DNA of 45,413 bases, from IMG/VR virus record IMGVR_UViG_2522572021_000012. One strand, given 5' to 3'. Source of the stretch: a virus (Duplodnaviria > Heunggongvirae > Uroviricota > Caudoviricetes). The notes beneath the pieces were generated by a model. It was not told the origin of the DNA. It saw nothing but the letters and a program-made list of their open reading frames with translations, and did not search any database. Shown piece after piece: positions 32,936 through 33,304 of this stretch; the first letter of the stretch is position 1, and every line of letters starts with the position of its first letter. Made by a program: the position numbers and the translations under genes.

Positions 32936-33304
32936 ATGGTTGGAACCGCTATAGCAAGCTTTTTGGGGATGTTGGCAATCTCAACAATTTACGGCTTAGC
33001 GCATGCTTTTATTGCGAAATCTCTATCAGAAAAAATAAGCCAGGCTTGGGCGCATAGATCAGCTCGTTTCATGATTCTAGTGATCATAGCAATACAAGGG
33101 ATATCTGCATTTATCCTCTATGGATCAAGCTTATACCTATTGTATCAAGGCGCGACATTTACGCCTTACACCAGTGATTACGGAACCCTATACGATGGTA
33201 GTGAAGACATCTCTATGGCTTGGATCGTCTTTGGTTTATCTATGGCCGTGTCTGTTGTAGCAGACATCATTAAGGTAATTCTCGTCTTAACCTTCGCTGA
33301 CTAA
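32936..33304 (+). CDS. polytopic membrane protein in the rex/sieB slot (function unknown)
   Basis: 122-aa ORF 19 nt after the cI stop, AAGGGGG RBS; three long hydrophobic segments; lies between cI and OL. Confidence 0.6.
   Translation: MVGTAIASFLGMLAISTIYGLAHAFIAKSLSEKISQAWAHRSARFMILVIIAIQGISAFILYGSSLYLLYQGATFTPYTSDYGTLYDGSEDISMAWIVFGLSMAVSVVADIIKVILVLTFAD

Follow-up and report, generated by a model that had tools for sequence, protein, structure and literature searches.

The immunity region of the prophage in virus record IMGVR_UViG_2522572021_000012 (Caudoviricetes) raises the question of why an additional gene stands directly behind the repressor gene, and what its product does. The window, i.e. 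the whole stretch of 45,413 nucleotides (nt) that was analysed, contains an open reading frame (ORF) with an ATG start at 32936..33304 (+ strand), which directly follows the repressor gene cI and encodes 122 amino acids (aa). It corresponds to the gene hkaS of phage HK620. In our view, hkaS is an accessory gene that belongs to the HK620-type immunity module, and HkaS is best filed as an orphan-sequence accessory membrane protein expressed from the repressor operon. A role in defence is plausible from the position of the gene and the type of protein, and the possible roles are weighed below.

The hkaS gene and its predicted product

The 238-aa product of the upstream gene (32201..32917, + strand, TGA stop at 32915–32917) has an HTH_3 N-terminal domain and a Peptidase_S24 C-terminal domain (E=5e-24 in Pfam), and is therefore a lambdoid CI-type repressor, in this case of the HK620 immunity type. 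The spacer between cI and hkaS has a length of 18 nt and contains the Shine-Dalgarno motif AAGGGGG (32924..32930, + strand), 5 nt before the ATG at 32936. The initial annotation of the locus had described a 122-aa ORF on the same strand just after the cI stop, with this ribosome binding site, and the description is borne out. On the cI strand, hkaS is the sole ORF between cI and the left operators (OL), i.e. OL3 (33414–33430), OL2 (33436–33452) and OL1 (33461–33477), which were located on the + strand by mapping from the HK620 record and by reading the sequence. The end of hkaS is separated by 109 nt from OL3 and by 131 nt from OL2, so that the distance of ~130 nt to the operators that had been given before is acceptable.

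A 1351-bp segment comprising cI, hkaS and their flanks (32150–33500) is 98.4–100% identical to 16 phage records, among them HK620, HK630, HK140, mEpX2, HF4s, HZ41, vB_EcoP-611R6, phi296, phi367, and two Shiga toxin (Stx) 2c-converting phages. In comparison with HK620, the identity is 98.6% for the segment, 99.0% for the cI coding sequence, and 96.7% for the HkaS protein (AAK28867). The HK620 record (GenBank AF335538) has the order cI, hkaS, tIMM, then OL3 to OL1, pL and nutL. The gene had been called uncharacterised, which is correct in so far as the product is annotated as “unknown” in this record. However, it is already catalogued, as hkaS of HK620 and as phrog_6534, and hence is not newly seen. 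Several phage records carry extra “hypothetical protein” features under the cI-to-OL segment.

That hkaS is a real gene, and one subject to purifying selection, follows from its conservation. Homologues were found in Escherichia coli, Hafnia, Salmonella, Enterobacter and Buttiauxella, and on one unassigned metagenome contig. In seven lineages, with identities down to 52–55%, the gene has exactly 122 codons and zero indels. The ratios of nonsynonymous to synonymous divergence (dN/dS) were calculated as Nei-Gojobori estimates and are 0.15 for the window versus Hafnia and 0.20 for Salmonella versus Hafnia; in more distant pairs the synonymous sites are saturated. For comparison, the value for cI in the same genomes is ~0.03, and at the protein level HkaS has changed about five times faster than CI. 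The dS values for the window versus Hafnia are alike in cI and hkaS (0.66 and 0.76, respectively), showing that the two genes diverged together. A purine-rich Shine-Dalgarno motif and a spacer of 18–20 nt are present in the window and at all eight junctions that were read (Salmonella, Hafnia and locus L010), and the coordinates give spacers of 20 nt for Buttiauxella and for P0012/Enterobacter. In all 147 copies from complete E. coli genomes, 80% or more of the gene length is aligned, and at least 989 public contigs encode exactly this HkaS protein. Frameshifted or truncated variants are also present in public data (P0005, P0008, P0009, P0013) and would be compatible with an ORF that is unexpressed, or a decaying functionless remnant, but the low dN/dS at saturated synonymous change, the fixed length, the conserved Shine-Dalgarno motif and start codon, and the above-mentioned numbers of copies make this explanation hardly credible.

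A consensus scan found no promoter-like or terminator-like site on the + strand between cI and hkaS. Behind the gene, a GC-rich hairpin (33311..33336, + strand, −13.7 kcal/mol, z = −3.2) lies 7 nt past the hkaS stop, and is followed by an A/T-rich hairpin (about 33383..33415, + strand, −6.7 kcal/mol, z = −2.3) that matches tIMM of HK620, i.e. the end of the cI transcript. A hairpin is found behind the hkaS stop in every lineage: Hafnia has kept the first hairpin of the window, Salmonella has a different one in the same place, and Buttiauxella has a canonical terminator that includes a T-run. The conserved Shine-Dalgarno motif, the short gap, the absence of an intervening terminator-like site and the hairpin/tIMM behind the gene agree with an arrangement for co-transcription with cI, which had been proposed in the initial annotation. 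Co-transcription of cI and hkaS from pRM and pRE appears well supported by this anatomy and by the lambda paradigm. A Cys-rich ORF of 40 aa on the minus strand (33287–33409) is antisense to the region between hkaS and OL and overlaps the terminator hairpins; it shows no sign of being a gene.

The three long hydrophobic segments that had been noticed before were recovered with Kyte-Doolittle windows (about residues 3–27, 45–70 and 92–121) as well as with AlphaFold2, which predicted helices at residues 2–29, 31–38 (short), 41–74 and 89–121, and a short beta-hairpin at about 78–86. The mean predicted local distance difference test (pLDDT) value was 91.6, from an alignment of six sequences only; because of these few sequences, and because long hydrophobic helices score easily, the helix packing is not established by the model. 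The predicted layout consists of the transmembrane segment (TM) 1 at ~3–27, a basic loop at 28–44, TM2 at ~45–70, an acidic Tyr/Gly-rich loop at 71–91, and TM3 at ~92–121. In all six lineages compared, loop 1 has 4–5 Lys/Arg and a net charge of +3 to +5, and loop 2 has 0–1 Lys/Arg and a net charge of −1 to −4. With the positive-inside rule, which is used to orient membrane segments, this charge distribution leads to an N-out, C-in orientation. HkaS is predicted to be a three-helix inner-membrane protein, with the N-terminus and the Tyr/Gly-rich loop in the periplasm and the basic loop and the C-terminus in the cytoplasm.

The invariant residues are distributed over both faces of the predicted protein. 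On the cytoplasmic side before TM2 they are K33, Q36, W38, H40 and A43-R44-F45, and Q54 is invariant within TM2. Y67, L69, Y70, G72, T74, Y82, G83, Y86 and G88 belong to loop 2 or to the outer end of TM2. A95-W96, F99-G100 and A104 lie in TM3, and D110, K113 and the C-terminal VLTFAD at its end and at the C-terminus.

The profile of PHROG 6534 (“unknown function”) matches residues 1–122 of 122 with E=1.1e-78, and all public copies examined are named “hypothetical protein”. At E<=10, Pfam gave only sub-threshold matches of transmembrane composition (Cation_ATPase_C with 19 bits versus a cut-off of 27, TssN, and DHHC), and none of the known and candidate defence-protein families of PADLOC-DB v2 was matched. 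NCBIfam gave no match to HkaS. A word-indexed search of 5.8 billion protein clusters yielded 11 matches, every one of the hkaS family. An exhaustive profile search of 1.84 billion representatives added one further 50%-level cluster of the family, one fragment, and otherwise nothing real; a match in a 5,949-aa repeat protein was judged to be spurious. In the Protein Data Bank (PDB), a sequence-profile search had 0 matches at E<=10, and Foldseek of the HkaS model versus BFVD and PDB found nothing at E<=0.001. HkaS is an orphan family, without a detectable relative outside a small enterobacterial family by sequence or fold.

The hhalign probabilities were 0.25% for P22 SieA, 0.04% for P22 SieB, and 0.28% for lambda RexB. 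HkaS as a distant SieA, SieB or RexB was ruled out by these values of less than 0.3%. For Hex of phage 434, E values of 3.9–5 resulted when the Hex ORFs were searched with the HkaS profile (hmmsearch --max), and neither 434 nor Sf6 was among the records retrieved by tblastn with HkaS. A class I holin or antiholin was also rejected as a candidate, as HkaS is without the charged C-terminal tail, the lysis-cassette context and a Pfam match. The searches agree with the earlier remark that HkaS is not recognisable as RexB, SieB or another named exclusion protein (hhalign, Pfam, PHROGs, PADLOC, NCBIfam), and they gave no match to any other named family. In a literature search, hkaS, its accessions, the locus tag and the PHROG identifier were not mentioned; the name “hkaS” alone retrieved only fungal herbarium codes, and the papers on mEpX2 do not discuss the gene.

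Linkage to the repressor and variable cargo behind it

The order of genes in every locus retrieved is cro (opposite strand), cI, a gap of 18–20 nt, hkaS, and an N-type gene. The replication, recombination and nin modules vary between these loci. The identities to the window are 96% for CI and 82% for HkaS in Hafnia, 86% and 60% in Salmonella, and 84% (C-terminal domain only) and 54% at locus L010, respectively. Among 5,426 complete E. coli genomes, cI and hkaS were each found in 146 genomes and at 147 places, with adjacent coordinates.

In all seven lineages examined, hkaS directly follows the same repressor C-terminal domain. The Buttiauxella locus (L011 3333–4369, contig CBCPKK010000004.1) encodes a mosaic repressor of 215 aa, followed by an hkaS gene with 55% identity and the canonical terminator. 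The N-terminal DNA-binding helix-turn-helix (HTH) domain of this repressor is unrelated to that of the window, and the Cro sequence is also different. The C-terminal S24 domain is ~90% identical to that of the window CI, with the recombination joint in the stretch of cI that separates the two domains. As hkaS was retained in spite of this swap, the linkage is to the lineage of the C-terminal domain and not to the immunity specificity. Recurrence of the gene behind unrelated repressors, which had been envisaged before, was not found in the lineages examined; it is always the same C-terminal-domain lineage.

To survey the slot behind the repressor, tblastn was run with the repressor C-terminal domain, and phage repressors with 67–85% identity were found that are not followed by hkaS. 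In 434, lambda imm434, Sf6, HK446 and Huey, hex / gene 38 lies behind the repressor; the C-terminal domain of the 434 repressor is 72% identical to that of the window. A 294-aa P63C-domain protein occupies this position in Erwinia phage Midgardsormr38, a 127-aa Cys-rich (zinc-ribbon-like) protein together with a 109-aa tail-anchored protein in Enterobacter phage ENT1, and a soluble protein of 118–120 aa in CharmingMan and Cronobacter ENT39118. In Serratia OS31, there is no ORF of at least 40 aa within ~500 nt behind the repressor. None of these slot proteins resembles HkaS (hmmsearch --max, best E=0.83). The occurrence of unrelated cargo behind similar C-terminal domains shows that the slot is a variable accessory site. 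An obligatory coupling of hkaS to the C-terminal domain was therefore rejected, as comparably close domains carry other cargo.

This result is in accordance with published work, in which the interval between cI and N is a hotspot of mosaic diversity that houses rexAB and bstA (PMC8585504). The genes rexAB, the 933W kinase gene and hex, all on the pRM transcript, exclude other phages (PMC3564112), and bstA, too, is co-transcribed with the repressor and phage-excluding (PMC8585504). The view of the repressor operon as a site of defence genes, on which the initial annotation had built, is thus backed by the literature for rexAB, bstA, the 933W kinase and 434 hex. The analogy to two specific phages stood in one case and fell in the other. 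In lambda, rexAB lies in the slot. In P22, however, OL and gene 24 directly follow c2, and sieB comes only after gene 24 and has the opposite orientation. In contrast to hkaS, which lies between cI and OL, sieB of P22 and lambda imm434 is found past gene 24/N and is oriented opposite to the early-left operon, and the sieB-like gene hkaP of HK620 is placed in the same way.

An observation on Hex was made in passing. The annotated start of 434 Hex (lambda imm434, L013 2890–3294; also L018, L019 and L020) results in a signal-peptide-like N-terminus, MIRIAALLSILLTTSANSEC..., and one phage record labels the protein PagP-like. The signal-like N-terminus sits oddly with the published cytoplasmic role of Hex in blocking RecA-mediated repressor cleavage. 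A GenBank note on hex states that the wrong start codon had been inferred in the paper.

Possible roles of HkaS

What could a membrane protein in this position do? Tentatively, we regard superinfection exclusion by a block of DNA translocation at the inner membrane as the most likely role. CI and HkaS would be made from one mRNA, and with this shared mRNA HkaS should be present in every lysogen via pRM, as well as during the establishment of lysogeny via pRE. There it may interfere with the channel, or with a host inner-membrane component, that passes the DNA of a heteroimmune phage to the cytoplasm. Transcription from pRM/pRE, membrane insertion, the effect on phages and the blocked step are all steps that we infer. 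Exclusion is favoured because HkaS would be a constitutively co-expressed, partner-less, three-pass inner-membrane protein in a slot whose characterised genes are directed against phages or act on the repressor. Two further findings support it: the operon contains no gene for a cytoplasmic sensor or a partner, and several of the invariant residues (outer end of TM2, loop 2) would face the periplasm.

T4 Imm and HK97 gp15 act at the inner membrane against the entry of phage DNA, like P22 SieA. The latter, which we regard as the closest functional analogue, resides in the inner membrane, has three predicted transmembrane segments and is alone sufficient to block DNA injection; the types of the SieA family are <30% identical to one another (Leavitt et al. 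2024, PMC10883804). HkaS is likewise a small, prophage-borne and partner-less protein with three predicted transmembrane segments; in HkaS, these come with a consistent positive-inside pattern. In contrast to SieA, with 162–164 aa, it has only 122 aa, and P22 sieA is flanked by gene 16 and mnt and belongs to the late/immI region, whereas hkaS is arranged as part of the repressor operon. The gene for BstA of the Salmonella prophage BTP1 lies directly downstream of the repressor gene, shows high expression in lysogens and provides a defence by itself (PMC8585504), but, unlike HkaS, BstA is not a small membrane protein.

Several results weigh against exclusion. hkaS accompanies every copy of this cI in the 146 E. 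coli genomes and thus behaves as a fixed part of the module more than as a free moron, and it stays with the C-terminal domain even though the DNA-binding domain and Cro have been replaced. The GC content of hkaS is 42%, which is close to the 45.6% of cI. The predicted periplasmic loop is no more conserved than the cytoplasmic face (W38, H40, A43-R44-F45, VLTFAD). The absence of matches to PADLOC models, the very low hhalign probabilities for SieA, SieB and RexB, and the absence of the gene from the literature searched point in the same direction, and the pLDDT value obtained with six sequences and long hydrophobic helices leaves the packing unsettled.

If HkaS excludes phages, the few exclusion proteins that act as single genes at the inner membrane would be joined by a new sequence family, and HkaS would be relevant to predicting the phage susceptibility of E. 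coli strains with this immunity type. The gene is common in E. coli, and its carriers include records of Stx2c-converting phages and genomes named as Shiga toxin-producing E. coli (O145:H28, O111:H8). Phages that grow on K-12, e.g. mEpX2, carry hkaS, which makes a possible exclusion cheap to test. An unfamiliar membrane protein behind the repressor is a common sight and will not surprise a phage biologist.

The alternative that fares best, although we consider it unlikely, is a host-directed lysogenic conversion. HkaS would then protect or adapt the envelope, e.g. by immunity to pore-forming bacteriocins or to contact-dependent or type VI membrane toxins, by tolerance to antimicrobial peptides or stress, or by modulation of a membrane transporter of the host. 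Small intramembrane immunity proteins are similar to HkaS in size and in the three-helix inner-membrane topology that is predicted for it, but no colicin, microcin or effector immunity family of Pfam was matched at E<=10, and no adjoining toxin gene was seen in the window, in HK620 or in the retrieved loci. hkaS has been retained across prophages of E. coli, Salmonella, Enterobacter, Hafnia and Buttiauxella that have differing replication, recombination and virion modules, which fits a benefit at the level of the host that is independent of the phage type. In contrast, the characterised slot genes found in the literature all act on phages or on the repressor.

Somewhat more doubtful is abortive infection, in which HkaS would be a latent pore similar to RexB or a holin, and infection would trigger a depolarisation that kills or arrests the lysogen before the phage cycle ends. 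Lambda RexB acts against T4 rII and phages like it by depolarising the membrane. hkaS occupies the slot of lambda rexAB, i.e. it has the orientation of cI and, like rexB, is situated between cI and OL, and it encodes a predicted small polytopic membrane protein with a presumed co-expression with the repressor in the same type of operon. The ionisable residues D110 and K113, within or at the end of TM3, and Q54 in TM2 are invariant, and the invariant small residues G100/A104 could support oligomerisation. However, HkaS has no similarity to RexB in hhalign, and it has three predicted helices and 122 aa versus four helices and 144 aa in RexB. Lambda has the pair rexA and rexB, whereas hkaS is without a RexA-like sensor gene, and the protein has hardly any cytoplasmic mass for sensing an infection. 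The charged C-terminal tail that is typical of class I holins is also missing.

A lysis-lysogeny tuner ranks behind conversion and abortive infection. In this case HkaS would make lysogeny more stable or influence how it is established, either in a Hex-like manner, via the C-terminal domain of the repressor or the RecA-stimulated cleavage, or via the membrane-bound FtsH, which degrades CII. This would agree with the strict linkage to one C-terminal-domain lineage despite the exchange of the N-terminal domain, Cro and the operators in Buttiauxella, with the one-to-one co-occurrence of cI and hkaS in E. coli and their similar dS values, and with the invariance of the cytoplasmic juxtamembrane motif and the C-terminus. 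However, C-terminal domains with 81–85% identity occur without hkaS, and those of Salmonella and Buttiauxella that are followed by hkaS are similarly diverged (84–91%), showing that the domain can do without HkaS. The spacing of 18 nt might by itself account for the linkage. Moreover, the cytoplasm-facing part comprises only ~17 loop residues and a hydrophobic tail, and the about fivefold faster protein evolution of HkaS in comparison with CI is unlike the prediction for a tight physical partnership.

A precedent for a tuner is hex, which lies behind the 72%-identical C-terminal domain of 434 and has been reported to block the RecA-mediated cleavage specifically of the 434 and P22 repressors. 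It belongs to the pRM transcript and has two effects, the exclusion of P22 as a heterologous phage and a stabilisation of the lysogen (PMC3564112). hkaS is likewise directly behind a repressor with a 434-type C-terminal domain, with a presumed co-transcription. In contrast to HkaS, Hex has, from its annotated start, a signal-peptide-like N-terminus and no transmembrane bundle. If HkaS tunes induction instead of excluding phages, it would bear on the stability of prophages with this immunity type.

Lower still we place the view that HkaS may found a structurally orphan class of repressor-operon membrane proteins, with a function coupled to the repressor C-terminal domain. HkaS might sense an event at the envelope or an injection and transmit it to the stability of the repressor, or it might be a single-protein defence unlike Rex, SieA and Imm. 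Such a class would explain the attachment to one C-terminal-domain lineage through the exchange of immunity specificity.

Neighbouring features of the prophage

The right operators OR1 (32125–32141), OR2 (32150–32166) and OR3 (32174–32190) lie between cro and cI in the pRM/pR region. They were mapped from the HK620 annotation, and their palindromes GAATACTACAGGTATTC, CAATACTCAGGGTATTT and AAGTACCTTAGCTATTA, respectively, are readable in the window sequence. On the other side of hkaS, pL was located at 33450–33478 (+ strand; TTTACA at 33450, TATTCT ending at 33478) by mapping from HK620, and the consensus scan agrees; together with OL3 to OL1, it makes up the region 33414..33485. nutL follows at 33524..33565 (+ strand) and is the right-hand limit of the segment shared with HK620.

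Between nutL and N, the window contains a 250-bp segment (33569–33818) that is absent from HK620, unannotated, and without an Rfam match. In comparable positions, it occurs in 54 of the 5,426 complete E. coli genomes, with two variants (at least 95% and about 88% identity). A multi-copy miniature inverted-repeat transposable element (MITE) was rejected as an explanation for this insertion beside nutL, as it is single-copy per genome.

Two adjoining transfer RNA (tRNA) genes (24574–24726, minus strand) are part of the late-regulatory region, an arrangement shared with many lambdoid phages of the Stx type. The longest of the ORFs with at least 110 aa between the tRNA genes and position 22800 has 158 aa, and none is as long as Stx A with about 319 aa; smaller ORFs and homology were not covered.

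The ORF for the antiterminator N (34010–34177, 55 aa) matches HK620 N over the first 39 residues only. The match is broken at an insertion sequence (IS) element of the IS3 family on the minus strand, with orfB at 34180–35067, orfA at 35067–35393 and an ALIL frameshift pseudoknot at 34996–35112. The prophage probably lacks a functional N, and it may therefore be induction-defective while still expressing cI-hkaS. A second IS3-family element is found at about 38000–39350 on the + strand, with an ALIL pseudoknot at 38376–38492 and a 296-aa orfB at 38418–39308.

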